Virus record (IMG/VR): IMGVR_UViG_3300045110_000277
Span: 1-64,000 of that record
Length of the DNA stretch: 64,000 nucleotides
Reading direction: 5' to 3' (one strand)
Source: a virus
Shown here: in pieces, positions 661 through 51,591 of the stretch
Numbering within the stretch: position 1 is the stretch's first letter
Layout: each line of letters opens with the position of its first letter
Made by a program: the position numbers and the translations under genes
Notes under the pieces: model-generated
Seen by the model: the letters and a program-made list of their open reading frames with translations, nothing else
Told to the model about the DNA's origin: nothing
Databases searched by the model: none

Positions 661-807
661 GTGACCGAACCCGCGCTCGACCCGGACCTCGCCATCGGCG
701 AGCTGGCCGAGACCGACAACACCGCCAAGGCGTCCGACGGCGACCAGCACGTCGCCCAGGAGCCCGGCAGCGCGTACGACCCGACCGGTGAGCCGGTGGA
801 GGCGTGA
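661..807 (+). CDS. Small acidic hypothetical protein
   Basis: AGGAGG RBS before GTG at 661; GTGA overlap with the endolysin start. Confidence 0.7.
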   Translation: MTEPALDPDLAIGELAETDNTAKASDGDQHVAQEPGSAYDPTGEPVEA

Positions 808-1577
808 CCACCGCCCAGCAGTACCTCGCGGTCCAGCGCGGCCAGCTCGGGCAGGGCGAGACGCCCGACGGGTCGAACCACACCATCTACGGCGCCTTCA
901 CGGGCTACCAGAACCAGCCCTGGTGCGGGTCCTTCCAGCTGTGGGCCGCCCATCAGGCCGGTCTCGTGCTGCCGCCCAACGTCAGCCCGGCGCTGGTCTA
1001 CACCCCGGCCGGTGCCGCGGCGTACCAGAAGGACGGTCGCTGGTCGGCCACGCCGATGGTCGGGGCCCACGTCTTCTACCGCTGGCCCGGCTCCAGCCGG
1101 ATCGACCACGTGGAGTGCGTCGAGTCGATCCTGCCCGACGGCAGCTTCTACGCCCTCGGCGGGAACGTCTCGAACCGGGTCATGCGTACCCACCGGTCCC
1201 ACGACAGCGTGGTTGGCTTCGGCCTGCCGGTCTACACCATCGCCCCGCTGCCCCCGGGCCCGCCGCCGGCGCCGCACCCGGTCGGCACGACCCGCGTCTC
1301 GCTGAGCGCGGTCATCGCCGCGGCCAAGCACGACGCCCCGGCGGCCGGTCAGCCGACCGAGCACAAGGTGGACGTGCTCCCGGTGGAGAGGGCGCTGGCC
1401 GCTGAGCACCTGCTGGCCAGCCAGTACGTGGACGGCTCCTTCGGCAAGATGACCATCGCGGCGTACGCGGGCTGGCAGCGCCACTGTGGCTACCAGGGCG
1501 TGGACGCGAACGGCGTGCCTGGCAGCGCCTCCCTGATCAAGCTGGGCGCTCGCCACGGGTTCGTCGTCGTTCGGTGA
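804..1577 (+). CDS. Endolysin: CHAP-like amidase/peptidase domain plus C-terminal peptidoglycan-binding domain
   Basis: QPWCGSF (catalytic Cys), DHVE (His), GGN; Pro linker; VDGSFGKMTIAAYAGWQR...ANGVPG PG-binding repeat. Confidence 0.85.
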   Translation: MTTAQQYLAVQRGQLGQGETPDGSNHTIYGAFTGYQNQPWCGSFQLWAAHQAGLVLPPNVSPALVYTPAGAAAYQKDGRWSATPMVGAHVFYRWPGSSRIDHVECVESILPDGSFYALGGNVSNRVMRTHRSHDSVVGFGLPVYTIAPLPPGPPPAPHPVGTTRVSLSAVIAAAKHDAPAAGQPTEHKVDVLPVERALAAEHLLASQYVDGSFGKMTIAAYAGWQRHCGYQGVDANGVPGSASLIKLGARHGFVVVR

Positions 1578-2527
1578 TCGTCGACCTGTTCGCGGGCGCC
1601 AGTGGGTGGGCCACTGGTGCTCGCGGACTCGTCGAGGGCATCGTCGGGGTCGAGCTCGATCCGCAGGCGGCGCAGACGCACCGCAACGCCCACGGCGCTC
1701 GCTCGGTGATCGAGACCGACGTGCGCTTCGTGAACCCGAACCGGGTCAGCAACGGTCAGTGGGTGGAGGGCCTCATCAGCTCCTCGCCGTGCCAGACGTT
1801 CTCCCGGGCCGGGAAGATGTCCGGCATCCCGCAGGTGCCCAACCTGGTGGACGCGGTGGCGCTGATGGGCGCTGGCGCACCGTTCAAGGAGGCGGTGGCG
1901 ACCACCGGGCTGTCCAGCGCGGACGAGCGCACCCTGATGGCGCTGGAGACGATGCGCTGGATCCACGCCCTCGACGCCGGCGGCCAGAAGCTCGCGTGGG
2001 TCGTGATGGAGCAGGTGCCCTTGGTGCTGCCGGTGTTCCAGGCGTACGAGGAGGTGCTGCGCTCGCGCGGCTTCTCCACCTGGACCGGCCAGGTGAACAG
2101 CGTCGACTTCGGCGTCGCCCAGGACCGGACCCGGGCGGTGATGCTGGCCAGCCGGCTACGCACCGTGGCCAGGCCGTACATCGAGACCCCGAAGCTGGCC
2201 ATCGCGGACGTGCTCGACCTGAGCCACATCCCGGCCGACGCACGGCTCAAGACCGGCAGCTGGGGTGCGGGTGCGACCCGCGGTCGGCCGTTGGTGGATC
2301 GTTCCAGCCCTAGCCCGACGCTGGCGTTTGGGAAAGACTCCAGCGGTTGGGAGTGGGTGGTCGAAGGAGCAAAGACCACCTACCCGCTCACGACGACGGA
2401 CATGGCCCTGCTCCAGGGGTTCCCTGCCGACTTCCCTTGGGCAGGACCACGTACGGCTGTCGTACGACAGATCAGCAACGCCATCCCGCCGCCGTTGGCC
2501 CGGGAGATCTTGCACGCTGTCACCTAG
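1574..2527 (+). CDS. DNA cytosine-C5 methyltransferase (orphan)
   Basis: Motif I VDLFAGASG, motif IV SSPCQTFS, VI MEQV, VIII QDRTR, IX-X LLQGFP...QISNAIPP. Confidence 0.92.
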   Translation: MIVDLFAGASGWATGARGLVEGIVGVELDPQAAQTHRNAHGARSVIETDVRFVNPNRVSNGQWVEGLISSSPCQTFSRAGKMSGIPQVPNLVDAVALMGAGAPFKEAVATTGLSSADERTLMALETMRWIHALDAGGQKLAWVVMEQVPLVLPVFQAYEEVLRSRGFSTWTGQVNSVDFGVAQDRTRAVMLASRLRTVARPYIETPKLAIADVLDLSHIPADARLKTGSWGAGATRGRPLVDRSSPSPTLAFGKDSSGWEWVVEGAKTTYPLTTTDMALLQGFPADFPWAGPRTAVVRQISNAIPPPLAREILHAVT

Positions 2528-5170: not shown

Positions 5171-5213
5171 CCCTGCACCTGCCAACGAGCGTTCGCACGC
5201 CGAGGAGACCCAG

Positions 5214-8147: not shown

Positions 8148-8465
8148 CTACGAGCGCGGGGGCTTACCGCCCGGCTCCGGGCCGGTGAACACCTCCGAAC
8201 GCAGCTGTGCGAACTGCTGCTGGACCTCACGGCGCACCTGCTGGGTGACCTCGTTGACGATCTCCTGCTTGGCGGCGTGGAGCACCATCACCTCGCTGAC
8301 CCTGCGAGCCGACCGGATCGTCTGCTCGGCAAGGTCCCAGAACGCCTGGCCGTACTGCGCGAGCTGCTCGCTCGTGGTGCCGGACGGCGTGCCCGAGTCG
8401 ATGAGGGACTGGATGTCCAGCCGGGATGGGCTGTAGCCCACCCGCTCCTCTGTCTGCGCTGTCAT
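8148..8465 (-). CDS. Helical hypothetical protein; the only credible minus-strand gene
   Basis: AGGAGAGG RBS before ATG, converges on the hairpin, coiled-coil-like composition. Confidence 0.7.
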   Translation of the reverse strand: MTAQTEERVGYSPSRLDIQSLIDSGTPSGTTSEQLAQYGQAFWDLAEQTIRSARRVSEVMVLHAAKQEIVNEVTQQVRREVQQQFAQLRSEVFTGPEPGGKPPRS

Positions 8466-8948
8466 AGGGCGCCTCTCCTTCATCCATCAGCCGTAAGCCG
8501 TAGTTGCTGCGAAGTCCTCGAACCTAGGCCGGTAACGCCAAGGTCACAACCCCCTGTCGGCGTGTCGGCCATTCGGGTGAACTTCTAGCCCAAATGATCA
8601 CTGAAGACGGCTCTGGTGCGGATGCCAACGACCGTTCAGAGCACCTCCACTCGCCGATTCGGCTCTCAACGCTCGTTCAGAGCACCACCACGTGCGTTCT
8701 GGTGCTGGCGTGTCCGTGTATGTCCGATTTCCCTTGCCCCGCAACAAGATCAAGAGCTTCTGGTGCGGATGCTTGGCATGTTTGGTGGCCCGTGCTAGCC
8801 TCCGGCCTCCGGCGTGAGCGAGGAACCGAGCGGTCGACGGGAAAGCGCCAGCGTCAAAGGGCAAGAGCTTGGATCCATGGATCTAGGTATCCACCGCGCG
8901 TGCGCGCGAACGATTTGACTCTTTGAGCACGGACTGCGTTACCGTCGT

Positions 8949-9491
8949 GTGATGAACCGACGAAATGTGGTCACCGCCCTAGTCGTTGGGACTGTGCTCG
9001 TCACAGCTCCCGCGGCTGCCGCGAGTGCTCCCAAGACAGAGGTCCGCGCGGCTGCCCCGGCGTACGTCGCCGAGCAGCACGCCCATCCCATGAGGACGTT
9101 GAGCACGTCACGCTCGCTCCCGCGCCGGCCACCCGCCAAGGTGGCCATTCGTGTTTCCAAGCCCAAGCCGAAGGTCCACCACGTCAGCACCAGGCGCACC
9201 GCTGTCGTCCCCAGGCACTACGGCACCGCGTACCTCGTGGCCATGGCGAGCTGCATCCGGCACCACGAGTCCGGCGTGTACACCCGCAACAGCGGCAATG
9301 GCTACTACGGGGCGTACCAGTTCAGTGACGCAACGTGGCACGCCCAGACGCACCTGCCGGGGCACGCCAGCGATTATCCGAAGGCCGTCCAGGACTACTG
9401 GTTCATGCACACGTGGGCCAAACTGACGAGCGACTCTGCCAGGCAGGGCCAGTGGTCGACGTACCACTTCTGCTCGTACATCCGTCCCTGA
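8949..9491 (+). CDS. Secreted Rpf-like (resuscitation-promoting factor family) lytic transglycosylase
   Basis: Signal peptide (RR...VVTALVVGTVLVTAPAAAA); CIRHHESG...GNGYYGAYQFSDATW...Q..W...QWSTY..C. Confidence 0.85.
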   Translation: MMNRRNVVTALVVGTVLVTAPAAAASAPKTEVRAAAPAYVAEQHAHPMRTLSTSRSLPRRPPAKVAIRVSKPKPKVHHVSTRRTAVVPRHYGTAYLVAMASCIRHHESGVYTRNSGNGYYGAYQFSDATWHAQTHLPGHASDYPKAVQDYWFMHTWAKLTSDSARQGQWSTYHFCSYIRP

Positions 9492-9500
9492 GGGGGAGCC

Positions 9501-9713
9501 GTGTCGCTGAACCAGGACAACCCGTCCGATCTGATGGGGAAGCAGGTCCGCCTGCACACCCGTCAGGGCGACACGGTGGCCGAGGGCAAGATCATCGCCT
9601 ACACGGAGGCTCCGACCATCGTGATCGAGAAGGCGGACGGCTCGCGGATCAGCTGGAGGGCGGACCTTGCCACCATGCTCCCAGCTGATCTGCAGACCGG
9701 CGCGCCGGAGTAA
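9501..9713 (+). CDS. Small beta-barrel hypothetical protein
   Basis: RBS GGGGAG; YTEAPTIVIEKADGSRISWRADL. Confidence 0.6.
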   Translation: MSLNQDNPSDLMGKQVRLHTRQGDTVAEGKIIAYTEAPTIVIEKADGSRISWRADLATMLPADLQTGAPE

Positions 9714-9782
9714 GTCCTGGCCGAGCTGGGTACTGTGTGCCACACTGTGCTCAAATGGACTCGGACTAGGAAGGGTTGGATC

Positions 9783-10013
9783 ATGGCTGGACGCGCTCTG
9801 CTCAAGCAGGGCAAGGACCGCCGCAGCGCGATCTTGAAGTTCACTCGGGCCTACATCAGGAAGAACGGGTACGGCCCGTCCGTGGCGGAGATCGCCGAGG
9901 GCGTCGGCCTTGCCAGCAAGACCGCTGTGCGGCATCACCTTGCCACCCTCCAGGAGGAGGGGAAGGTCGAGATGACCCCTGGCCGCTACCGCTCGCTTCG
10001 CCTCGTGTCCTGA
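9783..10013 (+). CDS. LexA-family winged-HTH DNA-binding domain only (no S24 peptidase/dimerisation domain)
   Basis: ILKFTRAYIRKNGYGPSVAEIAEGVGLASKTAVRHHLATLQEEGKV...PGRYRSLRL matches the LexA N-domain pattern; stops after about 76 aa. Confidence 0.85.
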   Translation: MAGRALLKQGKDRRSAILKFTRAYIRKNGYGPSVAEIAEGVGLASKTAVRHHLATLQEEGKVEMTPGRYRSLRLVS

Positions 10014-10014
10014 G

Positions 10015-10929
10015 GTGGGCCTGACCGACGCGGGCGAGGCGTACTTCCGGGAGCAGATCGCGCACGCGCTCCAGGAGTCACGCCTTGCCCGCGCCCAGGA
10101 GTCGAAGAAGGTCGCCGCGGTCCTTCGCCAGCTCGGCCAGCAGTCCGATGCCGCTGCCGTGCTCCAGAAGCAGCTCAACGACGTGATCGCCAACCAGCTC
10201 CGCACGTACTCCACCGGCATCGACTACCACGAACCCGAGAACGACGGAGGGACTATGGCCCGCAGGCGAGGACCGCTGCACGGGTTCAGCCCGGTCCTGG
10301 ACGTGAACGGGATCGAGGTCGACCTGTGCCGGGTCTGCAACGGCCCGAAGGCGAACCGCGCCCACCAGGCGCCCGCGGCGAAGTCGAAGCCGAAGGGCGT
10401 GGCCGGGTTCGCCGTGGGCACCCGGGTGACCTGGACCCCGAAGGCGATGGGCGGTAGGACCCCGGTGCCGCTGCTGGGCACCATCGTCGGCGAGGACCGG
10501 GCCTTCGACGGCCTGATCGAGGACTACACCGTCCAGCAGGACGGCCCCGTCAAGGGGGGCTTGATGACCCCTGGCGAGCTGGTGCAGGTGAAGCCGGCCG
10601 ACCTGCACACCGTGGTCGCCCCGCCGAAGTTCAGGACGCCCGAGGAGGCAGACGCATGGCTGGAAGCTCAGGCGGTCGAGCGTGAGCGGGCTGCGCCGGG
10701 ACGTACCGGCAGCCGTACGGCCGGATGCCAGATCTGCGGTGACCCCGACGACCACGGTGGCGTCGCCCACCCCGGCCGTCCCGGTGACCCCGGCTACGCG
10801 GGTGCCAGCAGCTACGCGCCCGGTGCTGTCGCCCTCGGTGGCGCCGGGAACATCCAGCGCATCCCCATCGCCCCGTTCACGCTCAACGACGGCGACTCGC
10901 TCACCATCACCACCGAACTCACTATCTGA
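10015..10929 (+). CDS. Multi-module hypothetical protein (Zn-knuckles, SH3-like segment, PPKFxxxEEADAW motif); internal start likely at 10255
   Basis: CRVC..H, CQIC..H; GGAGG+ATG in frame at 10255. Confidence 0.65.
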   Translation: MGLTDAGEAYFREQIAHALQESRLARAQESKKVAAVLRQLGQQSDAAAVLQKQLNDVIANQLRTYSTGIDYHEPENDGGTMARRRGPLHGFSPVLDVNGIEVDLCRVCNGPKANRAHQAPAAKSKPKGVAGFAVGTRVTWTPKAMGGRTPVPLLGTIVGEDRAFDGLIEDYTVQQDGPVKGGLMTPGELVQVKPADLHTVVAPPKFRTPEEADAWLEAQAVERERAAPGRTGSRTAGCQICGDPDDHGGVAHPGRPGDPGYAGASSYAPGAVALGGAGNIQRIPIAPFTLNDGDSLTITTELTI

Positions 10930-10948
10930 GCCGCCCAAGCAGCTCGTC

Positions 10949-11329
10949 GTGCCCGGCGTGGGCGTCTGGGTTATCCCGCTGCCGTTCACCAAGGCGCTGA
11001 GCCTGAACGACCGGTACGGGAACCAGTACGCCCGCGCTCGGGCGGTCCGGGAGTGGCGTGACGCGACCCGCTGGTCGGTGCGGGCGGCCAAGGTCCCGCA
11101 CTACGAGCGGATCCTGGTCGGGCTGCACTACATCCCGAAGGACATGCGCCGGCGGGACCCGAACAACCTGATCGGCGGGATGAAGCCCTGCGAGGACGCG
11201 CTGGTCGACGAGGGCGTGGTCGACGACGACACCCTGCAGTTCATGCAGCGGGAGTACCCGACCATCCACGACCCGGACCCGAAGATCGTCGGCGGCCGGT
11301 TCTGGCTGACCATCGTGCAACTCCTGTAA
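10949..11329 (+). CDS. RusA-like Holliday junction resolvase
   Basis: LSLNDR...RRRDPNNL...KPCEDALVDEGVVDDD; start approximate. Confidence 0.8.
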   Translation: MPGVGVWVIPLPFTKALSLNDRYGNQYARARAVREWRDATRWSVRAAKVPHYERILVGLHYIPKDMRRRDPNNLIGGMKPCEDALVDEGVVDDDTLQFMQREYPTIHDPDPKIVGGRFWLTIVQLL

Positions 11330-11434
11330 CACGACACGCCGTGGCGCAAGTAGTGCGCCAATGACGGGCTGTGACCCTTAGGCCACCTACAGTCGGCATG
11401 TGCAGACGCCAACGCTCGTTCGCGGGACCACCGC

Positions 11435-12079
11435 GTGAGCATCGGGCCCGGTGTGGCCAACGTCCCGTTGGTGAAGGTGCTCACCCCGAGCGGCCAGGTC
11501 ATCGAGGTGATGGGCGCCGGGGAGCAGGACTTCTACGACGGCCAGCGGGACCGGTACCAGGCGGAGAACAGCTTCACGAATGCCTCGGACCTGCTCGACC
11601 TGGACCGGCTGCTGTTCTTCGAGCTGATGATCTTCCGCTCGACCACGTGGCTTGGTGGCGGTAAGGACTACTACGGCGACCTCCTGTCCCCTTCGCAGGA
11701 GGCCGACCAGCGGCGGTCGCTGAAGGAGAACAGCGCCCTGGTCTCGACCATCAAGAACGACCTGGGCATGACGAAGGCCCAGCGCGACAAGGCGCAGTAC
11801 GAGTCGGTCGGCACCTACATCCAGCAGCTCCGTGCCCGCGCCCAGGAGCACGGGATCAAGCGGGAGAAGGAGCTGGGCAAGGCACTGACGCTGATGAAGG
11901 AGCTGTACTCCATCGTCGGGGCGTACGACCGGGCCGACGAGACCGAGCGCAAGAAGCTCGGCTTCGAGGACGAGGCGGAGATCGTTGACTGGATCCGGAC
12001 GGTCATGCGTCCGGAGTTCGACCGCATCGACGCCTACTTCCGGGCCAACGCCCAGCGGTTCTGGGTCCGGGAGTTGTAG
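11435..12079 (+). CDS. Helical hypothetical protein (terminase small subunit candidate)
   Basis: Position upstream of TerL; ...IKNDLGMTKAQR resembles TerS C-terminal motifs. Confidence 0.5.
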   Translation: MSIGPGVANVPLVKVLTPSGQVIEVMGAGEQDFYDGQRDRYQAENSFTNASDLLDLDRLLFFELMIFRSTTWLGGGKDYYGDLLSPSQEADQRRSLKENSALVSTIKNDLGMTKAQRDKAQYESVGTYIQQLRARAQEHGIKREKELGKALTLMKELYSIVGAYDRADETERKKLGFEDEAEIVDWIRTVMRPEFDRIDAYFRANAQRFWVREL

Positions 12080-12315
12080 TGGGCCGCAGCGGCAACCCGG
12101 CCAAGCGGGCTGTACAGAAGGGCGCTCCGCCTGTACAGCCCAAGCGGCGCCGTTGCTACTACTGCGGAAGCAAGACCAGCTCCGACGGTGAGAGCACCCA
12201 GGAGGCTCGGTTCCCGCACGCCCAGCGTCGCCAGACCTGGGACCCGATCTGCGAGGTCGCGCGCAAGACCCGGCTGGTGCAGCGGCGCCTACGCATGGAG
12301 GCCCTGGGTGGCTGA
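12079..12315 (+). CDS. Small basic Zn-finger protein
   Basis: GRSGNPAKRA, CYYC; overlaps neighbours. Confidence 0.5.
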   Translation: MGRSGNPAKRAVQKGAPPVQPKRRRCYYCGSKTSSDGESTQEARFPHAQRRQTWDPICEVARKTRLVQRRLRMEALGG

Positions 12316-12859
12316 CGGGGCGCGCCAGGCACAGTGGGAGCAGGCCCGCACCCTGTACCCGAGCACCGAGTACCAGTCGCGGGTCTGGGCGGACTACTTC
12401 GACGAGCATCCGGACGTGCTGACCAAGCTGCTCGGGGACGTGTACCGGGTCTACAAGACCGAGGAGGCCAAGCGCGCCGGCGTCTCCAACCCGCAGGGTG
12501 GCCGGCGTCGTTCGCACGTGAACGGCAACCTGGACGAGCTGTGGGCCATCCTGACGCCGAAGTTCTCGATGGACCCGTTCCCGGTGGCGGTGCGCGAGCT
12601 GATGGGCAAGAAGTCGGTGCGCCAGTTCGCTGCGGACGTGGGCATGGACCACCGCGAGCTGAGCCGGCTGCTGAACGGCGCTCGCCGCCCCAGCATGATC
12701 CACTGGCTGGAGGTGATTGCCCGCGGAGCTGATGTGCATCCGGCGTTCTTCCTGGAGTGGCGGACGGCAACGCTCGTTGGCATCATGGCCGACGCCTTCG
12801 CGTCGCAGCCGCATCTGTCGATCACCGCGCTGAAGGCTCTGGGGAGGCGACCGGCGTGA
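12308..12859 (+). CDS. XRE-family HTH DNA-binding protein
   Basis: SVRQFAADVGMDHRELSRLLNGARRPS...LEVIARGADVHPAFF. Confidence 0.75.
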   Translation: MADGARQAQWEQARTLYPSTEYQSRVWADYFDEHPDVLTKLLGDVYRVYKTEEAKRAGVSNPQGGRRRSHVNGNLDELWAILTPKFSMDPFPVAVRELMGKKSVRQFAADVGMDHRELSRLLNGARRPSMIHWLEVIARGADVHPAFFLEWRTATLVGIMADAFASQPHLSITALKALGRRPA

Positions 12860-14487
12860 GCGTCGTCGCCGCCCTGACCGAGGAGGAGATGTACCTCCTC
12901 GCCATCATCGACGACCCGTCGGGCATCGAGCTGGCCGAGTTCTGCTTCCTCGACGAGGAGCCCGGCAAGGCCGACCCGTGCTTCCGGGTCCGCGACTATC
13001 AGTGGGCGTGGTGGACCAACGAGGAGCGGTATCAGATCGACCACTGTTCCCGAGACGTGGGCAAGAGCCAGGGCATCCAGCTGCGGGCGTTCGCGTTCCC
13101 GTTCAACTTCCCTGGTCAGGAGATGCTGGTCACCGCGCCGGAGCTGAACCACCTCTCGCCCATCGTCGACAAGATCGAGAAGTTGTTCCTGCGTGTTCGT
13201 TTGGGCAGGGAGATGCTCCCGCCGCGCAAGGGTGGTGGCATCAAGCACCAGCCGCAGTTCCAGATGACCTTCATCAACGGCGCGGTCATCATGGGCCGGC
13301 TGCCCAACCGCGACGGCCGTGGCGTCAAGGGCCAGCACTCCCACCGCATCGAGATGGACGAGGCGCAGGACTACCCCCAGCAGGGCTGGATGGAGCTCGT
13401 CGAGACGATGCGCGACACCCCGGGTGCTCAGTGGCGTGCGCACGGCGTGAGCCGCGGCATCCGGGATATGTACTACCGGCTGACGCAGAGCGAGAACCCG
13501 GACTTGCCGTTCTACGTCCATCGCTTCATGGCCATGCACCGGCCGGGCTGGTCAGCGCGGGAGCGCAAGAGCAAGATCGCCATCTACGGCGGCTCGCGGG
13601 ACAACCCGGACTACAAGCGCAACGTGTACGGCGAGCACGGCGACATCAGCAACCCGGTGTTCGTGCTCGCGCGGCTCATGGCGTGCGTGCGGATCAACGA
13701 GAGCACGTGGGCCACGGAGTACAACGAGAACGTCTACGCCAAGATCAAGATCGAGGCGGAGTCGCTTGAAGGCCGACCGATCACGACGTTCCTGCAGTTC
13801 CCGGCGAACCACCGCTCGACGGCGTACAAGAGCTACTGGGCCGGCATCGACATCGGCTTCACCAACGACCCGAGCGAGCTGCTGATCTTCGGCCAGGTCA
13901 ACGTCAAGGACAAGGACGTGCTGCGGCTGCTCTCGCGTGTCCACATGATGCGGATCAGCTCACCGGACCAGGAGGCGGTCATCGCCTCGGTCTTCGAGTT
14001 CTACGGCGACCGGCTGCGCACGCTGTCCATGGACAAGACCGGCAACGGCCTGCCGATCTGGCAGCACATGGCCCTGGACCCGCGGCACCGCGGCTACCGG
14101 GACCGGATCAAGGGCTACGGCTTCAGCGAGAAGAAGGCCGTCGAGTTCGACGACCGGGCGCTGGAGCGCAAGGAGAAGCCCGAGGACGCGGTGATCGAGA
14201 AGAACGTCATCGAGTTCGCCACGGACCAGCTGCGCGCCTACGTGGACGCCGGCATGGTCGAGCTGCCGTACGACCAGGAGCTGCTGAGCGAGTTCCAGGG
14301 CCAGACCGTGCTCTACACCCGGGACGACACCGACGTGGGCAAGAGGCGGACCCGGTACGGCGGTGGGTCCTTCCACACCCTGGACGCCAGCAAGCTGATG
14401 ATCTTGGGCAAGGAGCTGGAGGCCATCGAGGCCGCCCTCGCCCCCAAGCGCCGACGGGGACCTGTGCTCGACCGATTCGCATCCTGA
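12856..14487 (+). CDS. Terminase large subunit
   Basis: Walker A CSRDVGKS, Walker B IEMDEAQD, nuclease AGIDIG..DP, MDKTGNG, HTLDA. Confidence 0.9.
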   Translation: MSVVAALTEEEMYLLAIIDDPSGIELAEFCFLDEEPGKADPCFRVRDYQWAWWTNEERYQIDHCSRDVGKSQGIQLRAFAFPFNFPGQEMLVTAPELNHLSPIVDKIEKLFLRVRLGREMLPPRKGGGIKHQPQFQMTFINGAVIMGRLPNRDGRGVKGQHSHRIEMDEAQDYPQQGWMELVETMRDTPGAQWRAHGVSRGIRDMYYRLTQSENPDLPFYVHRFMAMHRPGWSARERKSKIAIYGGSRDNPDYKRNVYGEHGDISNPVFVLARLMACVRINESTWATEYNENVYAKIKIEAESLEGRPITTFLQFPANHRSTAYKSYWAGIDIGFTNDPSELLIFGQVNVKDKDVLRLLSRVHMMRISSPDQEAVIASVFEFYGDRLRTLSMDKTGNGLPIWQHMALDPRHRGYRDRIKGYGFSEKKAVEFDDRALERKEKPEDAVIEKNVIEFATDQLRAYVDAGMVELPYDQELLSEFQGQTVLYTRDDTDVGKRRTRYGGGSFHTLDASKLMILGKELEAIEAALAPKRRRGPVLDRFAS

Positions 14488-14828: not shown

Positions 14829-14956
14829 CTCTAGGGAGTTCTGGCCGGGTCTAGGACCGGTGTTGCGGCGGAACGCAACAGGCTGCGAACGGCCGTTGGC
14901 ATCCCGCGTCTTCGTCGACTGGGAGCAGATCACCACCAAATCGGAGCAGATCCGAG

Positions 14957-17191: not shown

Positions 17192-18798
17192 TGGACACCA
17201 AGGACCGGATGGCGAACGGGACGTACCCGATCACCAACCAGAAGCAGGCCAAGGCGGCCTGGGACCTGCGCGGGTCCAGCAAGACGTACTCCGAGGCCGA
17301 GGTGGTCTCGCACATCCGCGCGCAGGTCGCCAAGCACGGGCTGGAGATGCCCGCCGACAAGGTGGCCCCGAAGCAGAAGGCCGCTGCTGTCCCGCCGCAC
17401 GGCTTCATCTGGCCCGAGGGGATGCCCGACTGCTCGCTGTGCGACCGGACGGCCAACGATCCGGTCCACGTCAACCCGCCCCGCAACCCGCAGCGGTTCG
17501 GGGAGAGCACGTACCGCACCGAGGCGTCCGACAAGAACCCGAACCCGTCGATGCCGGTGCGCTCCCACGCCTACACCCCGAACGTGAACATGATCACGAA
17601 CCGGGTGCTGTGCCAGGGCTGCGGGGAGAACCTCGGCAACGGCATCCACGTGGTCGGGATGCCCGCCGGGATGGTCCCGTCCAGCTCGAACTCGGGCATC
17701 TGGGGTGCCGGGCAGACTGCGGTGGGCGCCGGGGGCTCACCGTTCGGCGCCGGGCCGCAGCTGGCGGAGCTGTCCGCGCATCGGTTCGAGCCGATGGACG
17801 GCCACGACGGCTGCGGGCTGGGCTGTGGGCTGCCGAGCTCGGACGAACTGCACACGCGAACGCCCGTTCGCACCCAGCCGAGGCAGCAGGCCGACCTCTC
17901 CGACGGCTCCGCCTACGACCAGGCGCAGCGCGCCCTGGCCCTGATGGCCATCGCCGACGAGGCGCTCGACCAGGCCCAGCCGCTGCTGGCTGCCGCCCTC
18001 GGGATGCCCAACCCGGACTCCGACGATGAGCCGGTGCGGGTGGCTGCCCAGGTCGCCTTCGTCTCCGAGATCGGTCAGAAGCTGGTCTTCGCGGCGCCCG
18101 GGTCCACCGGCTTCGACGTGTCGTCGCTGCCCCGGGAGATCGCCGCCGGCTTCCAGCGGGCGAGCGCGGCCAACCCCTACAACCTGTGGGTGACGGGGCG
18201 CTACGTCGAGGCGGACCGGCCGAACCGCAACGCGGCGTACTGGTCCACCGCTGACCTGGAGGTCGGCCAGCCGTCGGTTGCGCACGGGCCGATCAACTGG
18301 AACCACCAGGAGAAGGAGATCATCGGCTGCATCGCGGCGACCGAGCTGGTCAAGGTCGAGCGCCAGGCCGCCTCCGACGTGGGCAGTCACATCGTCGCGC
18401 TCGCCGCGGTGTGGGGCTTCATCTACCCGGAGCGGGCCCGCGCGGTGCAGAAGGCGTCGGAGGACCAGAAGCTCTGGTACTCGATGGAGTGCATCAGCCG
18501 GGAGGTCGCGTGCCTGTCGGGTGACTGTGGTGTGGTGCTCCCGTACCGCGACTACATGACGCGGCAGACCTCGCGCTGCGAGCACATGCTGGGCGGCGCA
18601 CCGCGCCGGTTCGTGGACCCGGTGTTCGGCGGCGGGGCCATGATCGTCCCGCCAGTACGGCCCGGGTGGGCAAATGCCGATGCACGGGTGATGAAGCAGG
18701 CGGCCGCGTTGGCCGAACGACAGGCAGCCGCCTTCGGCGACCTGACCACCTCAGAAGCCGAGCTGCTGGTGGCCCAGCTGATCGGGACAGGAGAGTAG
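17191..18798 (+). CDS. Capsid maturation protease-like protein with multi-module N-terminus
   Basis: PNRN...PINWNH...IIG...WYSMEC C-terminal domain; position between portal and scaffold. Confidence 0.55.
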   Translation: MDTKDRMANGTYPITNQKQAKAAWDLRGSSKTYSEAEVVSHIRAQVAKHGLEMPADKVAPKQKAAAVPPHGFIWPEGMPDCSLCDRTANDPVHVNPPRNPQRFGESTYRTEASDKNPNPSMPVRSHAYTPNVNMITNRVLCQGCGENLGNGIHVVGMPAGMVPSSSNSGIWGAGQTAVGAGGSPFGAGPQLAELSAHRFEPMDGHDGCGLGCGLPSSDELHTRTPVRTQPRQQADLSDGSAYDQAQRALALMAIADEALDQAQPLLAAALGMPNPDSDDEPVRVAAQVAFVSEIGQKLVFAAPGSTGFDVSSLPREIAAGFQRASAANPYNLWVTGRYVEADRPNRNAAYWSTADLEVGQPSVAHGPINWNHQEKEIIGCIAATELVKVERQAASDVGSHIVALAAVWGFIYPERARAVQKASEDQKLWYSMECISREVACLSGDCGVVLPYRDYMTRQTSRCEHMLGGAPRRFVDPVFGGGAMIVPPVRPGWANADARVMKQAAALAERQAAAFGDLTTSEAELLVAQLIGTGE

Positions 18799-19837: not shown

Positions 19838-19896
19838 CGCCCTGCGGCCCGACGGCCGTTGGCATCTCCAGTGGGTGCCAACGGCCGTTCGCACGT

Positions 19897-27544: not shown

Positions 27545-29434
27545 GTGGCCTTCGGCGGCGATAGCGCCTTCTCCGAGTACCCGTTCGCCGCACAGGCGGC
27601 CGGGCAGCAGCTCACGCGCACCACTTCTGACGACGCGACGGTCAGCGACTCGGTGGCGCGCTCTGTGGTCCTCGCGCGCACTACGTCGGACGCGGTGGGC
27701 TCCATCGCGGCCGTTCCAGCCAACGCGACGATCATCATGGGCGCGGCTGGCTGGATTACCAGCGGCACCGGCAACAGCCACCCCATCGTGATGACCATTC
27801 CGGCCGGGGCCCGGGTCAACGACCGGGTGTACATGGCGTTCGGCGAGAACGGTGGCGTCGCCATTCCCGTTCCGACCGGGTGGCGGCCGATCCTGGTTCC
27901 CGCTGCGTACAACGGCAACATCCTCAGCTGCGCCATCTTCGAGCGGGACGCGCTGCTCGGGGTGGGCGAGGCTGGCTCCACGGTCACCGTCGACATCGGC
28001 CAGAGCCGGGTGCAGATCGGCGTGATCTTCACCAGCGACGGCGACCTGGACGCGGTGAGCGCGGTCAGCAACCAGACCTCGCTGCAGTCCACGAACACGG
28101 TGCCCGCGGTCACCCCGGTCACTGACAACGCGCTGCTGCTGGAGATCGCGTTCCTGGTCTCCACCACGAACGCCCAGACGTACACGAGCACGCCACCGAC
28201 CGGCTACAGCACGCTGTTCGACCAATGCACCTCGAACGCGGGCGCGAACAAGAACATCGAGATCTTCATCGCCAGCAAGCAGCTGTCCGGCCAGAAGACG
28301 ATCTCGCAGGGTCCGACCTTCTCCACCCCGTCGGTGCAGACAGAATCGGTGGTGGTGTCGCTGACGTTGACCCAGGCCGCCAAGGAGCGGGCGGTCGCCA
28401 ACGTCGGCCGGTTCGCCTCGACCAGCGACAACGCCACGGTCAGCGAGACGGCGGTGCGCTCCGCCGAGGTGTACGCCCGCACGACCGCCGACAGCGTGCC
28501 CGTCAGCGAGAGCCTGGCCCGTACTGCACAGGTGTTCAGCCGCACCACGAGTGACTCGGTGGTGGTCTCCGAGGCGCTGTCCAGCCACGTCACGGTGGCC
28601 CGCACCACGGCCGACTCCGTGGTGGTCAGCGAGGCCGCGGTCCGCTCCGCTGACAACTACTCGCGCACGGCCTCCGAGACTGCCACGGTCTCCGAGACGG
28701 TTGCCCGGTCGCTGCTGCAGGCTCGCGCCCCGTCGGACGCCGTGTCCGTCTCGGACACCACCACCCGCGTGGTCGCCCAGTCCCGTACTACCTCGGACAA
28801 CGCCACGGTCTCCGACGTGGCCTCCGGCGTCATCGGCGGCAACCTGCACCTCACGCGCACCGCGTCGGACTCGATCAGCACCAGCGAGTCGGTGGCCCGG
28901 ATCGTCGTCCTGCCCCGCGCGGTGGCCGCTTCGGTGCCCGTCAGCGAGAGCCTGGCCCGCACCGCGCAGGTCTTCGCCCGGTCCACCTCGGACAGCGTGG
29001 CCGTCGTCGAGTCGGCGACCCGCTCGGCCGAGGTCTTCGCTCGCACGAGCTCGGACAGCGTGCCGGTCTCGGATGCCAACGCTCGTTCGCAGCATGACTT
29101 CAGGTCGACTGGGGAGTCGGTCCCGGTCAGTGAGGCGGCGACTCGGGCTTCCCAGGCGTTCGCCCGGACGACGGCCGACACCGCCGTGGGAGCCGCCTCG
29201 GTCTCCTCGCACACCGCCGCGTCGCGCACCACGTCGGACTCGTTCGCGGTCGGCACCAGCACGCCCACCCCGGTGTACGTGCCGTCCATCAAGGATCCGG
29301 AGATCGAGGAGGCCGGCGCCCTGGTTGGCGTCACCACCACGGGCGTGGTGCTCGGCGTGACCACCACGAGCGTGCTGCTCGCATCGCCCACGCTCGGCGC
29401 CGATATCGACCCCATCGACACGATGACTCGCTGA
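27545..29434 (+). CDS. Fibre-like virion protein with ~20-21-aa ARTTSDSVxVSE repeats
   Basis: About 15 repeats, mostly in 28400-29260, flanking a globular beta domain. Confidence 0.7.
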   Translation: MAFGGDSAFSEYPFAAQAAGQQLTRTTSDDATVSDSVARSVVLARTTSDAVGSIAAVPANATIIMGAAGWITSGTGNSHPIVMTIPAGARVNDRVYMAFGENGGVAIPVPTGWRPILVPAAYNGNILSCAIFERDALLGVGEAGSTVTVDIGQSRVQIGVIFTSDGDLDAVSAVSNQTSLQSTNTVPAVTPVTDNALLLEIAFLVSTTNAQTYTSTPPTGYSTLFDQCTSNAGANKNIEIFIASKQLSGQKTISQGPTFSTPSVQTESVVVSLTLTQAAKERAVANVGRFASTSDNATVSETAVRSAEVYARTTADSVPVSESLARTAQVFSRTTSDSVVVSEALSSHVTVARTTADSVVVSEAAVRSADNYSRTASETATVSETVARSLLQARAPSDAVSVSDTTTRVVAQSRTTSDNATVSDVASGVIGGNLHLTRTASDSISTSESVARIVVLPRAVAASVPVSESLARTAQVFARSTSDSVAVVESATRSAEVFARTSSDSVPVSDANARSQHDFRSTGESVPVSEAATRASQAFARTTADTAVGAASVSSHTAASRTTSDSFAVGTSTPTPVYVPSIKDPEIEEAGALVGVTTTGVVLGVTTTSVLLASPTLGADIDPIDTMTR

Positions 29435-35450: not shown

Positions 35451-35498
35451 CGGAGCAGACGCCAACGACCGTTGGCACCGAGACGAGGAGGTGACTGG

Positions 35499-40505: not shown

Positions 40506-42965
40506 ATGACTCTGTTCACGCGCACCGCCTCGGACAGCGCCGCTGTCTCCGAGTCGGTTGCGCGCGTGTGCAGGCACCCGCGCAGCACGTCGGACAGCGT
40601 GCCCGTCGCCGAGGCGCACACCCGGTCTGTCCACCGGTTCAAGACGACCTCGGACTCGGCGGTGGTGTCCGAGTCGAACATCATCCTGGGTCCGCTGATC
40701 AACCTGAGCGTGCCGGTCGGTGGGGTGAACGCGGCGACCGGCCAGCTGCCGACGGAGGTGCTCGGCGCGTACTACGAGGTGGCCCTGGCAGCGGCCGTTG
40801 GCGCCTACGCTTCCGGCCAGCCGGTCGGGATCTACCTGGGCGCGCTGAGCTACATCTTCGACTTCGACTGCCCCGAGGTGCAGGTCGGTGGCCGGCTGCC
40901 GTCGCTGTTCGTCGGCACCCCCGGGGTGGACGGGGACTTCTTCGGCCTGCCGATCATCTTGTCCGGGCTCAGTGGCACCGGGACGTTCAGTCTGCAGGGT
41001 GCCACGGTGGAGACCGGCGAGCAGGACGCGCTGAACGCCCTGGAGCCCACCGGCGGCCGGGTGGTGGTGCCGACCGCGATCCAGATCGGCGCGACGGTCA
41101 ACGTGCCGGACGCGACCCCGGCCAGCTTCACCGCGGTGCAGGCCACCATCGGCCCGCTGACGGTGCGCCGGGTGTTCTCCTCCAGCCTGCCCACGCACAT
41201 GCCCGCGGGCATCGCGGGCATCGTCGCGTTCTACTCGTTCAAGTCGAACACGACCATCCAGGACCTCATCAACGGCGTGCATGACGCGGCGGTGCGAACG
41301 CTCGTTCAGAGCCTGCCCAACGGCACGTACCTGACCAGCTACCACGAGCCCGAGAACGACATGGACGGCGACACCTTCGTCGCGCTCATGGACCACCTGT
41401 ATCCGCTGGTGAAGTCGATCAACCCGACGATCCAGTTCGGCCCGGTCTACATGACGTACTGGTGGCGCCCGTCGCTGTCGGGCGTGGGCAAGCCGGGCAA
41501 CGGTCACAACCCGCAGCCGAAGGACTCGTGGGAGCCGCACGACTACGACTTCCTGGGGTGTGACAACTACGCGCAGCCGCCGCAGACCCCGCTGGAGCTG
41601 GCCTCCGACACGACGTTCCAGAACTGGTACACCTGGGCGAAGGCGAAGGCGAACGCGGCCAACGTGCCGGTGTGCATCGTGGAGTACGGCGCGGGCGCGA
41701 TCACCTCGGGCATGACCGGGGGCGAGCGGGCCACCATGGAGGCTGCTCGCGCGGTCGTCATCGCCAACGACGGCACGTACGTGGCCAGCGAGCCCACCAT
41801 CGGCATGTGGCTGCTGTGGGACGGCACCGGCGCTGCTGGTGACTGGTTCCTGCACGACAGCGCCAGCCAGGCCGCGTGGGCGGCCATCGCCTCGGGCGGC
41901 AGCACCACCGGCACGGCGTTCGCGGGCATCGGCGACAAGAGCATCTGGATGCAGTTCACCGCGCCGCTGGACGGCACCTTCACCTTCACGGTGGACGACG
42001 CCTCGACGCCGGACTACCGGCTGGCCATCTACCACGGCGAGGCCATCGACGACCCGGCGATGGTGCTGCTCGGCGAGGTGTTCGCCAACGGCTCGACGGA
42101 CCCGACGCTCTCGGTGGAGTTCAGCCGGGGCGAGTCGTACTACGTCTACGTCAACAAGGTCGACGGCACGAGCACCACGTACCCGCTGCAGAGCTACACC
42201 TGGTCGTTCGGCCCGGCCGTGCTCGGCCCGGTGCTGACCATCGACCCGAACATCCTGGACCGGGTGCCAACGGGCCTTGTCGTCTCGTTGGTGAACATGC
42301 TCGACGGCGGTGAGGCGGTCGACTTCACCCTGGTCGGCAACGCCAGCGTGCTGGCCACCTTGCAGGCCGACGAGCAGGGCACCATCGTCGGCGTCACGGT
42401 GCCGCTGGGTCTGCCGCTGTCGGCGGGCACGTACACCCTGCAGGCCACCGGCGAGTCCTCCGGCCGCGTCGGCTCCTGCACCTTCCAGCTGCTCAACGAC
42501 CCGATGACTCGGCCGGCGCCGCCGCCCGACGACGTGCCGGTCTCGCCGCCAACGCAGGTTGGCATCCAGCGGTGGGTGTTCCAGGACCCGATGCCCGGCG
42601 GCCTGGCCACGCTGGTGTTCCCGGCGAACCCGGAGAAGGCGAGCAGCTTCTACGCCCCGGTGCCGGTCACGGTCGAGCACACCGTCGCGCAGGACGGCAC
42701 CGCGGTGGTCTGGGAGGGCGCACCCACGGCGCTGGCCGCGCAGTTCAGCGGCTACACCACCGACGAGACGTTCTACCTGGCGGTCGAGGCGTACGCCGCG
42801 CTGAACCGCAAGTTCTACCTGATCGACCACCGCAGCAAGGTGTGGGTGGTCGCGCTGACCAGCTTCGGCCCGGACCGGCGCATCGTGCAGCCGGTGCATC
42901 AGACCGACTCGTCGTGGGCGTGCAACTACACCGCGACCGTGATGATCTTTGCGGGGCCGATGTGA
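40506..42965 (+). CDS. Multidomain minor tail protein: RTxSDS repeats + GH26-like domain + distal-tail-like C-terminus
   Basis: YHEPEND, DFLGCDNY, IVEYG; C-terminal RWVFQDP...F.ANP..G......LIDH. Confidence 0.65.
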   Translation: MTLFTRTASDSAAVSESVARVCRHPRSTSDSVPVAEAHTRSVHRFKTTSDSAVVSESNIILGPLINLSVPVGGVNAATGQLPTEVLGAYYEVALAAAVGAYASGQPVGIYLGALSYIFDFDCPEVQVGGRLPSLFVGTPGVDGDFFGLPIILSGLSGTGTFSLQGATVETGEQDALNALEPTGGRVVVPTAIQIGATVNVPDATPASFTAVQATIGPLTVRRVFSSSLPTHMPAGIAGIVAFYSFKSNTTIQDLINGVHDAAVRTLVQSLPNGTYLTSYHEPENDMDGDTFVALMDHLYPLVKSINPTIQFGPVYMTYWWRPSLSGVGKPGNGHNPQPKDSWEPHDYDFLGCDNYAQPPQTPLELASDTTFQNWYTWAKAKANAANVPVCIVEYGAGAITSGMTGGERATMEAARAVVIANDGTYVASEPTIGMWLLWDGTGAAGDWFLHDSASQAAWAAIASGGSTTGTAFAGIGDKSIWMQFTAPLDGTFTFTVDDASTPDYRLAIYHGEAIDDPAMVLLGEVFANGSTDPTLSVEFSRGESYYVYVNKVDGTSTTYPLQSYTWSFGPAVLGPVLTIDPNILDRVPTGLVVSLVNMLDGGEAVDFTLVGNASVLATLQADEQGTIVGVTVPLGLPLSAGTYTLQATGESSGRVGSCTFQLLNDPMTRPAPPPDDVPVSPPTQVGIQRWVFQDPMPGGLATLVFPANPEKASSFYAPVPVTVEHTVAQDGTAVVWEGAPTALAAQFSGYTTDETFYLAVEAYAALNRKFYLIDHRSKVWVVALTSFGPDRRIVQPVHQTDSSWACNYTATVMIFAGPM

Positions 42966-48271: not shown

Positions 48272-48314
48272 ACACATGAGATGCGAACGCTCGTTGGCGG
48301 GGAGGAACTGGGTC

Positions 48315-48827: not shown

Positions 48828-49189
48828 TGGCTGACCACGCAGCGCCCGGCACCGGATGGCTGAACCTGCTCGACAAGGTACCTCCGGCCGTGCGGCACGC
48901 CCTCATCCTGCTCATCGGTGCTGGCCTGAGCTACGCCTCGGCGCACCTGCCGGACCTGCACCTCCAGCAGCCGTACCCGAACTTGCTCGGCGGCGCGCTG
49001 GCGATGCTCCTGCTGATCGTCACCCCGCTCACCTCGCAGTACGGCGTGGGCAAGAAGGTGGACGACGCGGCCCAGGCCCAGGCGGACCTGGACGCAGCCG
49101 TACAGCTCGTGCTGGGGGCGGCCAAGGACGCTGCAGCTGCCAAGCTGGGCGCGCCAACGGACGTTGCCGTCCAGCCTCCTGTGGCATAG
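48827..49189 (+). CDS. Holin (putative, 2 TM)
   Basis: Two TM helices, TPLTSQYGVG; end of the tail operon. Confidence 0.65.
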   Translation: MADHAAPGTGWLNLLDKVPPAVRHALILLIGAGLSYASAHLPDLHLQQPYPNLLGGALAMLLLIVTPLTSQYGVGKKVDDAAQAQADLDAAVQLVLGAAKDAAAAKLGAPTDVAVQPPVA

Positions 49190-49619: not shown

Positions 49620-50047
49620 CTCACATCGTGGACAATCTTGAGCCCGAGTCTGGGTCCATTTGAGCGTAGACGGGCTGCCAACGCTCGTTGACATAGGTAC
49701 TTTGGGCTAGGACCTTGCGCTCTGTCGGACCCTGTGGTTAGAGTCCGGGTCACTCGTTCGGCCGGTTCGCATCCCCCGTCGTTCCGGCTGGATGGGGCTC
49801 CTCCCGGGAGAGCGGGTCTCGCTTCACCCCGGGAGGGGCATCAACTTCACAGGTCGGTGACGACCACCAGGCACGCGGCAAGAGCCGGTGCGTGGGCCAT
49901 CCCCGAGAAGACTCGGAGGGCGGCGATCAAGGTAGGGCTTCGGCCCTGTCCTGGTCGTCGCCCTTTGCGTTACTCGGGAGCGGCCATGCACACGCTCGGC
50001 GTCATTGCGTTCGTCATCACATGCCTGTTCATTGCGGCCCTCGCGCT

Positions 50048-50949: not shown

Positions 50950-51591
50950 ATGTCCCTCAAGAGCGAGCTCTACAAGGAGCTCGGTGAGCTGGAGGACGCC
51001 AACGGGCGTCTGCGTGCTGCGATGGCTTCCTGCGAGCAGGAGCTGACCGAGACCCGGCTCGGTCGGGACGAGGCGCTGGCCCGTGAGTCCGACGCCAACG
51101 CCCACAACACCGCGCTGCAGGAGTCGCTGGAGCGGGCACGCCTGCAGCGCACCGACCTGCGTGAGCTGCTGCTGGCGGCGCGAACGACCATCAGCGAGCA
51201 GAAGCGTGACAACGAGCGTTTGACACTGGAGGGCAAGCTCCTCCTCGACCGCATCCAGGCGGTCCACACGCTGACCTGCCCGGACTGCTGGCCGGACGGC
51301 GTGATGTTCACCGGCCTGGGCCCGACCGGCTACGAGACGGAGACCGGCAGGGAGGTCCAGCAGGCCACCCCGTGGAGCCCGTGCGACAGGCACACCGCGG
51401 AGGTGCGCCACGCGGAGTTCCAGAGCCGCATCCTCGTGATGCCGTTCGAGCCGGCGCCGGGCCAGGCCGAGGACGGGTCCATCGACGACGCCGAGACGTA
51501 CTTCGGCGAGGGCACCCACCTGGGCCTGGCCGAGCAGGCGGGCAAGGCGTTCCGTGACGCGGCGAACGCCGAGGGGATGCCGCAGCCGTGA
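50950..51591 (+). CDS. Coiled-coil protein with C-terminal Zn site
   Basis: Heptad-rich N-half; CPDC...CDRH. Confidence 0.65.
   Translation: MSLKSELYKELGELEDANGRLRAAMASCEQELTETRLGRDEALARESDANAHNTALQESLERARLQRTDLRELLLAARTTISEQKRDNERLTLEGKLLLDRIQAVHTLTCPDCWPDGVMFTGLGPTGYETETGREVQQATPWSPCDRHTAEVRHAEFQSRILVMPFEPAPGQAEDGSIDDAETYFGEGTHLGLAEQAGKAFRDAANAEGMPQP

Follow-up and report, generated by a model that had tools for sequence, protein, structure and literature searches.

The closest described counterpart of the protein analyzed here is gp6 of GIL01, a tectivirus of Bacillus thuringiensis. This truncated LexA homolog of 66 amino acids (aa) consists of the DNA-binding head only, and the account of it that we use documents binding to a palindrome by electrophoretic mobility shift assay, footprinting, and surface plasmon resonance; the same account maps a single site, at -43.5 of promoter P3, where gp6 acts in activation, and describes residue K38 as essential (PMC6182141). 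Cellular LexA of Streptomyces venezuelae binds tCGAAC-N4-GNNCGa, according to the consensus given in PMC9380542. Here we describe a 76-aa protein, mini-LexA, encoded by a phage from a soil metagenome, together with an 18-bp palindrome that is dispersed over the same genome. Both belong to IMG/VR record IMGVR_UViG_3300045110_000277, which is linear, 86,079 bases long, 68% G+C, and 74% complete by CheckV; "the window" refers to bases 1-64000 of this record. Mini-LexA is, on the evidence presented here, the best candidate for the reader of this palindrome.

Dispersed repeats have been described in other actinophages. Cluster O phages carry a 17-bp dyad repeat, TGTTCGGNNNCCGAACA, present in 34 copies in Corndog; the authors suggest a dimeric regulator, and as far as their main account goes, the reader is narrowed no further than three predicted DNA-binding proteins (PMC4351075). 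By analogy, mini-LexA would work like GIL01 gp6, and the array of sites resembles the Cluster O dyad repeat or a palindromic set of the stoperators of Cluster A mycobacteriophages. Stoperators are reportedly asymmetric 13-mers oriented with transcription, present as dozens of repressor sites, many of them in short intergenic gaps; their reader is said to be a temperate phage's immunity repressor (L5 gp71, Bxb1 gp69), and elongating polymerase is presumably blocked by them.

A LexA DNA-binding domain without a protease domain

The gene in question is the following.

9783-10013 (+): mini-LexA gene; the 76-aa product is a LexA winged-helix DNA-binding domain alone and matches PF01726

The original prediction had read this gene as the winged helix-turn-helix (HTH) of the LexA N terminus, with neither a cleavage region nor an S24 peptidase domain, and the coordinates, Pfam, and a six-frame scan all agree with that description. 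The reading frame runs from an ATG at 9783, with GGAAGGG ahead of it, to a TGA at 10011-10013; a GTG at 9735 offers an alternative upstream start, and we prefer the ATG because the Met-Ala-Gly start is invariant in 8/8 homologs (alignment A1). Residues 12-70 match positions 6-64 of the 65-position PF01726 profile (LexA_DNA_bind) with 61.5 bits (cutoff, 23.7; E 6.5e-17), and the only other Pfam family past its own cutoff is a marginal FaeA (21.1 bits versus 20.7). Matches in PHROGs are to families of unknown function plus one "transcriptional repressor" family, and a profile of the mini-LexA family matches LexA chains in the PDB at E 1.5e-9 to 4.5e-7. A six-frame search of the 86,079-base record gave no match to Peptidase_S24 (PF00717). 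Nor does mini-LexA contain an Ala-Gly cleavage linker: the chain ends 6 residues past the wing, and its sole Ala-Gly is at residues 2-3. The downstream gene, 10015-10929 (304 aa), starts one base past the mini-LexA stop codon and has no Pfam match. Because both defining features, the S24 domain and the Ala-Gly cleavage linker, are absent, the 76-aa phage protein is, judged by its sequence, not a LexA repressor proper. Since it has neither cleavage region nor S24 domain, RecA would be unable to inactivate it, and mini-LexA is predicted to be insensitive to RecA.

The eight close homologs of mini-LexA (52-100% identity) are all 75-88 aa long, and because all eight are short and share the invariant start, we take the short form to be a native, stable family and not a truncation. 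Their conserved N-terminal arm has the form MAGxA(L/T)(L/I)xxG. A search for longer homologs returned none at E 1e-5 or better, which is weak evidence. Megablast of 9000-12000 against INPHARED gave no match, tblastn of mini-LexA against the same database gave only distant LexA heads (<44% identical), and scans of IMG/VR with single proteins (mini-LexA; portal) and a scan with alignment A1 returned nothing. Among 185,579 species genomes there is one homolog, on a 5.4-kb contig of a metagenome-assembled genome (MAG).

The recognition helix had been predicted to be unlike that of host-type LexA, and SKTAVRHHL indeed differs at 5/9 positions from the SSSSVAHQL of a host-type actinobacterial LexA (Nocardioidaceae MAG); identity to the Nocardioidaceae LexA head as a whole is 33-36%. 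Residue K46 is kept in 8/8 close homologs, and all motif-bearing relatives have K, R, or N there. Mini-LexA shares with cellular actinobacterial LexA the DNA-binding fold and, going by the consensus in PMC9380542, the AAC-N4-GTT geometry of its proposed site, and differs from it in this helix and in lacking the linker, the cleavage site, and the S24 domain. With gp6, as portrayed in PMC6182141, it has in common a phage-encoded LexA winged-helix head without a C-terminal domain (66 aa versus 76 aa here) and, if the assignment proposed here is right, a palindrome of its own that is not the host SOS box (GaCACAC GTGTGaC for gp6). The recognition helices, each with a lysine, read H-K-T-A-H-R-Y in gp6 and S-K-T-A-V-R-H here; the gp6 gene lies just upstream of late genes, and mini-LexA is alike in this respect. 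The two proteins are 23-29% identical, and K38 of gp6 and K46 are aligned in one MAFFT alignment (A4) and offset by one residue in another (A5). They differ in that the gp6 account gives one site, against 43 here (28 of them intragenic), and in that the gp6 site shown there lacks the SOS geometry AAC-N4-GTT that is kept here. A stretch about 25-45 nt ahead of the mini-LexA start, ACTGTGCT(C/G)AAATGG (window 9738-9760; also L029:5668-5690), could represent a -10 promoter element extended by TG. A sigma-70 promoter scan of 8300-10100 returned 0 sites, so none near the mini-LexA gene.

The LexA N-terminal domain is said, from the work of Kim and Little in 1992, to dimerize on DNA. A profile search of 1.84 billion representative proteins returned 478 at E 1e-10 or better. 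Among the best 150 of these 478, most are 66-160 aa long and 46 have at least two matched stretches (by our own count); each multi-stretch protein that was scanned (6/6) consists of two or three LexA heads in one chain, and of four long single-stretch proteins scanned, only one has an S24 domain. By domain content, then, protease-less LexA heads are a large class, some lineages of which have fused heads. Six of these proteins (P0011, P0014, P0016, and P0018-P0020) are single chains with two or three LexA DNA-binding domains and without a protease domain, and may represent covalently linked pseudo-dimers of mini-LexA type. The original prediction had cautioned that mini-LexA lacks the usual dimerization domain. 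That domain is absent, as stated, but the worry is softened because stand-alone heads are numerous, some are tandem-fused, and the head-only gp6 binds a palindrome in the experiments described in PMC6182141.

A dispersed palindrome with the spacing of LexA sites

The palindrome has the form TGCS-AACG-NN-CGTT-SGCA, with the 18-bp consensus (T/C)GC(C/G)AACG-NN-CGTT(G/C)GC(A/G). The pattern AACNNNNGTT occurs 35 times in the window, where 3.5 copies are expected, and 0/100 shuffles reached 35. Thirty of the 35 window copies are AACGNNCGTT, here called the core, which has 43 copies in the whole record versus 0.62 expected (first-order Markov) and is by far the strongest among all 4+4 palindromes with spacers of 0-8. 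The 30 sites in the window are listed below; no strand is assigned to them. Calls of intragenic and intergenic position come from our own rough gene map.

147-164: site, non-coding
504-521: site, non-coding
5180-5197: site between stop codon and next start
8623-8640: site, copy 1 of tandem pair; non-coding region of 507 bp preceding the mini-LexA operon
8664-8681: site, copy 2 of tandem pair
11407-11424: site 20 nt ahead of the start of gene 11435-12079
12765-12782: site, intragenic
14884-14901: site, intergenic
17855-17872: site, intragenic; perfect CGAAC-N4-GTTCG (17857-17870)
19876-19893: site, intergenic; relative G005 has the core at the corresponding position
29074-29091: site, intragenic
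35460-35477: site between stop codon and tape-measure gene start
41293-41310: site, intragenic
45335-45352: site, intragenic
45617-45634: site, intragenic
48282-48299: site, intergenic, 25 nt ahead of start
49152-49169: site, intragenic
49676-49693: site in long non-coding region
51207-51224: site, intragenic
53671-53688: site, intragenic
57478-57495: site, intragenic
57966-57983: site, intragenic
58180-58197: site, intragenic
59723-59740: site, intragenic; perfect CGAAC-N4-GTTCG (59725-59738)
60578-60595: site, intragenic
61800-61817: site, intergenic, 32 nt ahead of start
62441-62458: site, intragenic
63088-63105: site within sigma-factor gene
63306-63323: site within sigma-factor gene
63938-63955: site, intragenic

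The AAC-N4-GTT geometry noted in the original prediction is kept exactly, which fits the LexA family. Both of the perfect CGAAC-N4-GTTCG copies that it named (17857-17870 and 59725-59738) were recovered, and a third such copy is at 84593, outside the window. Most half-sites are CCAAC (53 of 86), again as predicted, yet CGAAC makes up a third of them (31 of 86; 2 are of other types). Within the 43 sites, the half-sites combine as 16 CC/CC, 19 mixed, 6 CG/CG, and 2 other; because the types pair at random, there is no sign of a heterodimer.

These half-sites bear on the alternative that host LexA binds the sites, whether for SOS-coupled control or through titration of LexA, with mini-LexA competing or having no part. 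Six of the 43 sites have GAAC on both halves, 3 of them being the perfect copies; GAAC-N4-GTTC is enriched (9 copies in the record versus 0.78 expected); and the S. venezuelae consensus, as presented in PMC9380542, tolerates mismatches. However, 40/43 sites depart from TCGAAC-N4-GTTCGA at 3-6 of its 12 specified positions, and C is preferred before AAC (53/86), with G found there in just 10/92, 2/32, 2/16, and 6/30 half-sites of relatives. Besides this C, the conserved inner G/C next to the core and the outer TGC/GCA flank are foreign to the SOS box. We regard host LexA as an improbable reader. The original prediction had placed it beside a phage LexA of shifted specificity as one of two alternatives; the latter fits all of the comparative evidence, while host LexA is disfavored by the at least 3 mismatches in 40/43 sites.

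A different kind of alternative is that the palindrome is not a protein operator at all but an RNA or DNA hairpin, or a target of methylation, restriction, or packaging. The phage encodes a C5-cytosine methylase (1574-2527), the core holds two CpGs, and several copies lie in 5' leaders; no link between this methylase and the CpGs of the palindrome was found. Mirrored positions do not covary, being complementary in 22, 24, and 24 of the 43 copies versus 21.8, 22.1, and 21.2 under independence, and about half of the copies would have a stem mismatch. A search of 8300-12900 with Rfam gave 0 matches, and the ~70-fold enrichment over chance would not be expected of a methylation or restriction site. 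We consider this explanation highly doubtful.

Of the 43 copies, 28 are intragenic. All three frames are used, but 20/28 are in the frame xxA-ACG-NNC-GTT, which places A and T at third codon positions, where the genome is ~93% G+C. The remaining 15 copies are not wholly within genes, whereas 9% of the DNA is non-coding (P 2.8e-6), and several intergenic copies sit directly past a stop codon, 20-35 nt ahead of the next start. Because mirrored positions vary independently, intragenic copies are biased in frame, and intergenic copies are in excess, the palindrome behaves as a DNA site for a two-part protein and not as a hairpin; it is selected at the DNA level. Density varies along the genome: 0.5 sites per kb in the first 20 kb, 0.12 in the structural region (20-45 kb), 0.86 in the replication region (45-64.8 kb), and 0.61 in the leftward arm. 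The word CTAGGAC, considered as a recurrent neighbor of the sites, is not enriched (3 and 2 copies versus 2.8 and 2.3 expected).

In these respects the array resembles the Cluster O repeat, which in the published description (PMC4351075) is likewise a dispersed actinophage palindrome with about one copy per 2 kb, roughly a third of them intergenic and the rest in genes, more frequent in the leftward non-structural arm and missing from the host, in phages that encode Ku. That repeat is a 7-3-7 element with an A/T center and invariant arms, whereas the arms here are degenerate, and a specific candidate reader can be proposed here from protein family, synteny, and the relation of helix to site. 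With stoperators the array shares dozens of dispersed sites and an intergenic excess (43 copies, 15 not wholly in genes); it differs in being a palindrome and not an asymmetric, oriented site.

Gene and palindrome in related phages

Relatives in IMG/VR surfaced only through DNA pattern scans. Four of them (G003, G004, G005, and G008) have terminase, portal, and capsid proteins 57-81% identical to those of our phage, and a fifth, G002, has tail, replication, and leftward-arm genes in common with it. They contain 16, 8, 4, 15, and 46 cores, respectively (~0.3-0.9 per kb), while a reversed control pattern gave 0-1 matches in the four records tested (G002-G005). Seven metagenome or MAG contigs with homologs 49-66% identical to mini-LexA (L027-L032 and L035) contain 0, 2, 5, 0, 3, 2, and 5 cores, with at most 0.06 expected in each; those with cores are 2.9-10.4 kb long, and the two blanks are 1.1 kb (L027) and 2.6 kb (L030).

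Across this soil actinophage group, the mini-LexA gene lies 1.3-3.5 kb upstream of the terminase module. G003, G004, and G008 encode a syntenic LexA head of 74-76 aa there, 32-35% identical to our own. The original prediction had named co-occurrence in related phages as a check, and the outcome is in its favor: 9/9 related contigs that cover the gene region encode a LexA-head-only protein (74-90 aa), and 8 have both the recognition-helix type described below and the core; in the ninth, L030, the helix is of another type and the core is missing. G005 stops immediately before this place and G002 leaves the gene's region uncovered, so both are uninformative on gene presence. Gene and element travel together through diverged lineages.

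Copies also recur upstream of the gene itself. In our phage, the operon order is Rpf-like/70-aa/mini-LexA, and the tandem pair, with copies 41 bp apart, stands ahead of this operon, 1.1 kb upstream of mini-LexA. G003 likewise has a pair, 40 bp apart and ~0.5 kb upstream. Single copies lie 130-150 bp upstream in L029, L031, and L032: in L032 it is a perfect 18-bp palindrome 146 bp ahead of the start, in a divergent intergenic region, with L031 alike, and in L029 it is 150 bp upstream, within the preceding open reading frame (ORF). The distances in L028, G004, and G008 are ~460, 557, and 280 bp. The gene at 11435-12079 has a copy ahead of it in our phage and ahead of its homologs in L029, L031, and L032, the L029 copy having one core mismatch (AACGTGTGTT). 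Nucleotide alignments to relatives cover only 2/43 of our sites, and the core is kept in both, which is too small a sample.

The single homolog among species genomes adds a comparison with bacterial DNA. The 3.7-Mb Nocardioidaceae MAG in question has 18 cores, 5 of which are on the 5.4-kb contig with mini-LexA, and the 16-bp flanked site GCSAACGNNCGTTSGC is found on this phage contig only. The site is private to phages. GX15bay (L042, MK557849.1), a distant relative with structural proteins 30-42% identical, is without mini-LexA and has 1 core in 50 kb.

Several further observations concern these regions. In one of the short pieces of a relative ~90% alike (run X2 contigs), 17 letters stand in place of 8609-8666, the segment with the tandem pair's first copy, and lead into the second copy; no firm conclusion follows. 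A stem-loop at 11343-11359 (+), ahead of gene 11435, is found at the aligned places in L029, L031, and L032, with a compensatory change (GGCGC...GCGCC versus GGTGC...GCACC) and no T-run. Direct repeats of the ATGGGAC/ATGGGCC type lie between palindrome and mini-LexA start at L031:120-150 and L032:790-815 and may be a second kind of binding site. GX15bay has a mild excess of GAAC-N4-GTTC (7 versus 0.98 expected) with mixed inner bases, and these copies could be host SOS boxes. G006 (L170-L172; 53.9 kb), an otherwise unrelated phage with 1 shared gene, lacks a LexA head and has 18 cores, of which nearly all are AACGGCCGTT flanked by A-rich/T-rich sequence; its array is a different dispersed palindrome. 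G007 (L146/L159), a complete 163-kb IMG/VR phage with terminal repeats, contains six cores within 13.8 kb; a LexA-head-like match at 131179-131355 is weak (E 1.2e-4).

Recognition helix and site type

We compared helix and site in 12 homolog-bearing sequences (alignment A5; the helices of L027 and L032 were read separately). The core goes with a helix of the type (K/R/N)-(T/A)-(A/T)-(V/I), represented by SKTAVRHH, SNTAVRHH, SKATVRYH, ARTAVVWH, FRTAVAWH, and NRTAIVWH, and is present at 0.37-0.93 per kb in 8/9 sequences with such a helix, our own included. Core-type helix and core are found together in our phage, L035, L028, L029, L031, L032, G003, G004, and G008. The three sequences with other helices have no core or background numbers: L030 (SPNATRNH) has 0 in 2.6 kb, L047 (SASTANHH) has 0 in 19.4 kb, and phage Wildcat, whose gp13 has the helix SPATTKHH, has 3 in 78 kb. 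No enriched AAC-N4-GTT palindrome was found in Wildcat, with its LexA-like gp13, and no alternative repeated palindrome in the 2.6 kb of L030.

The flanks of the core differ between lineages, from TGC(C/G) in our phage to T(G/A)(C/A/G)(C/T/A) in G002, G003, and G008, and the end of the helix differs alongside, R-H-H versus V/A-W-H. This parallel is suggestive, no more.

Mini-LexA as the candidate reader

We lean toward mini-LexA, a phage transcription factor that would consist of the LexA head alone, as the protein that reads the dispersed palindrome. Two copies would bind the two half-sites of the 18-bp element and pair up on the DNA, with TGCCAACGAGCGTTCGCA as the predicted target; the helix start, (K/R)-T-A-V, would read the invariant AACG core and the remainder of the helix the lineage-specific flank. 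As to function, our best guess is a repressor or roadblock under its own control, by which the non-structural genes and its own operon would be shut down or tuned, because there is ~1 site per 2 kb, the non-structural arms are densest, most sites are intragenic or lie from a stop codon to the next ribosome site, and copies lie ahead of its own operon. Activation at some promoters, as for GIL01 gp6, the sole member of this type to have been studied, is conceivable as well.

Several points weigh against this assignment. Co-occurrence cannot single out mini-LexA, or any one conserved gene, because gene and site are both universal in the group. The comparison of helix with site rests on short contigs; within it, L027 (1.1 kb) has a core-type helix yet no core, and the blank L030 is weak as evidence. 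The relative richest in sites, G002 with its 46 cores, is among those uninformative about the gene. Mini-LexA has no known dimerization surface. The sign of regulation is a guess and the weakest step, because the sites, inspected by eye, have no fixed distance to promoter-like elements (sigma-28-like ones among them) and no sigma-70 site lies near the gene. Finally, two operators read by proteins of other folds resemble the palindrome. BldM binds TCACcCgnncGgGTGA, given in PMC4125116 as a 7-2-7 site with a CG-NN-CG center, a layout that fits the palindrome, and the operator proposed for Thermus PaaR in PMC6651687, CNAACGNNCGTTNG, has the same core.

The first of these operators suggests that two receiver-less GerE/LuxR HTH proteins of the phage (56661-56930 and 56927-57142; both GerE domains at E 3e-15) read the palindrome as a 7-2-7 site, as BldM does. 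G002, which packs 46 cores into 52.7 kb, spans the syntenic slot that runs from the primase-helicase to the homolog of 57139 and gives no match to GerE at E 0.01 or better; six phage contigs with GerE homologs (38-51% identical; 104 kb) hold 1 core between them; and the random pairing of half-sites gives no sign of a heterodimer. We find the GerE pair quite improbable as the reader. The second operator points to a host regulator of another fold, such as a TetR-family repressor like PaaR. No TetR_N domain was found in the phage, the 16-bp site is confined to the phage contig in the 3.7-Mb MAG, and the flanks vary from one phage lineage to another, in keeping with a reader encoded by the phage; a host regulator of this kind is very improbable.

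A broader alternative is that the reader is another phage protein, unrecognized as DNA-binding, while mini-LexA has few targets of its own or acts on the host. Only 81/131 predicted proteins were scanned, most without a Pfam match and many conserved in relatives, so there is room for such a protein, and the limit on co-occurrence noted above applies to it too; action on the host has a parallel in Wildcat gp13, which at 77 aa is LexA-like and in the account given in PMC7474061 is toxic to Mycobacterium smegmatis. Among the 81 proteins, however, the only other dimeric HTH candidates are the GerE pair and a weak HTH encoded on the terminase side (12308-12859), and both the AAC-N4-GTT geometry and the pattern of helix versus site point to a LexA head. 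This alternative strikes us as unlikely.

If mini-LexA is the reader, a wider picture can be sketched, although we doubt that it holds in full: LexA heads blind to RecA, with SOS geometry and a private half-site, would run a genome-wide operator network that silences the non-structural arms. Such a network would have one site per 1-2 kb, accommodated within ORFs through rare third-position A/T, in phages with no integrase or classical repressor. Neither an integrase nor a CI-type or other classical repressor was found among the 81/131 predicted proteins scanned, in a record that is 74% complete. With (K/R)TAV fixing the AACG core and the helix end co-evolving with the flank, these phages would offer a natural series for the recognition code of LexA heads. 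Together with the sigma factor, Lsr2, Rpf, and Ku-ligase genes, the network could support dormancy or a carrier state in an actinobacterial host that sporulates or grows slowly.

Dispersed palindromes of actinophages, such as the Cluster O repeat, have been without a reader since 2015, and here a specific 76-residue candidate can be named. A literature search of article texts found no paper that pairs a LexA-head protein with a dispersed phage palindrome. Should mini-LexA bind, it would be a second worked example, after GIL01 gp6, of an SOS-repressor head made into a private regulator, controlling dozens of sites versus one for gp6. It would show a LexA head working without a dimerization domain, and lineages with differing helices and flanks would lend themselves to the study of specificity shifts. 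It would also call for caution in annotation, since the label "repressor LexA" on phage proteins of 75-90 aa need not imply SOS control.

Other genes of the phage

The C5-cytosine DNA methylase gene at 1574-2527 (+) (PF00145, E 7e-28) adjoins a gene for a CHAP-domain protein, 804-1577 (+). Beyond the window, an Lsr2 homolog with dimerization and DNA-binding domains is encoded at genome positions 68112-68495 (-) (L033:4112-4495). The leftward arm, 70967-81406 (-) on L033 and likewise beyond the window, encodes a RuvB-like ATPase, a WGR-domain protein, a DUF6744 protein, a VWA protein with a MoxR ATPase, an ATP-dependent DNA ligase, and Ku; all of these except the WGR protein have homologs in G002. 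A 70-aa protein with an Acb2/Tad1 hairpin domain (52334-52546, +; PF24729, E 7e-18), which also has a homolog in G002, is a candidate sponge for the signaling nucleotides of CBASS or Thoeris.

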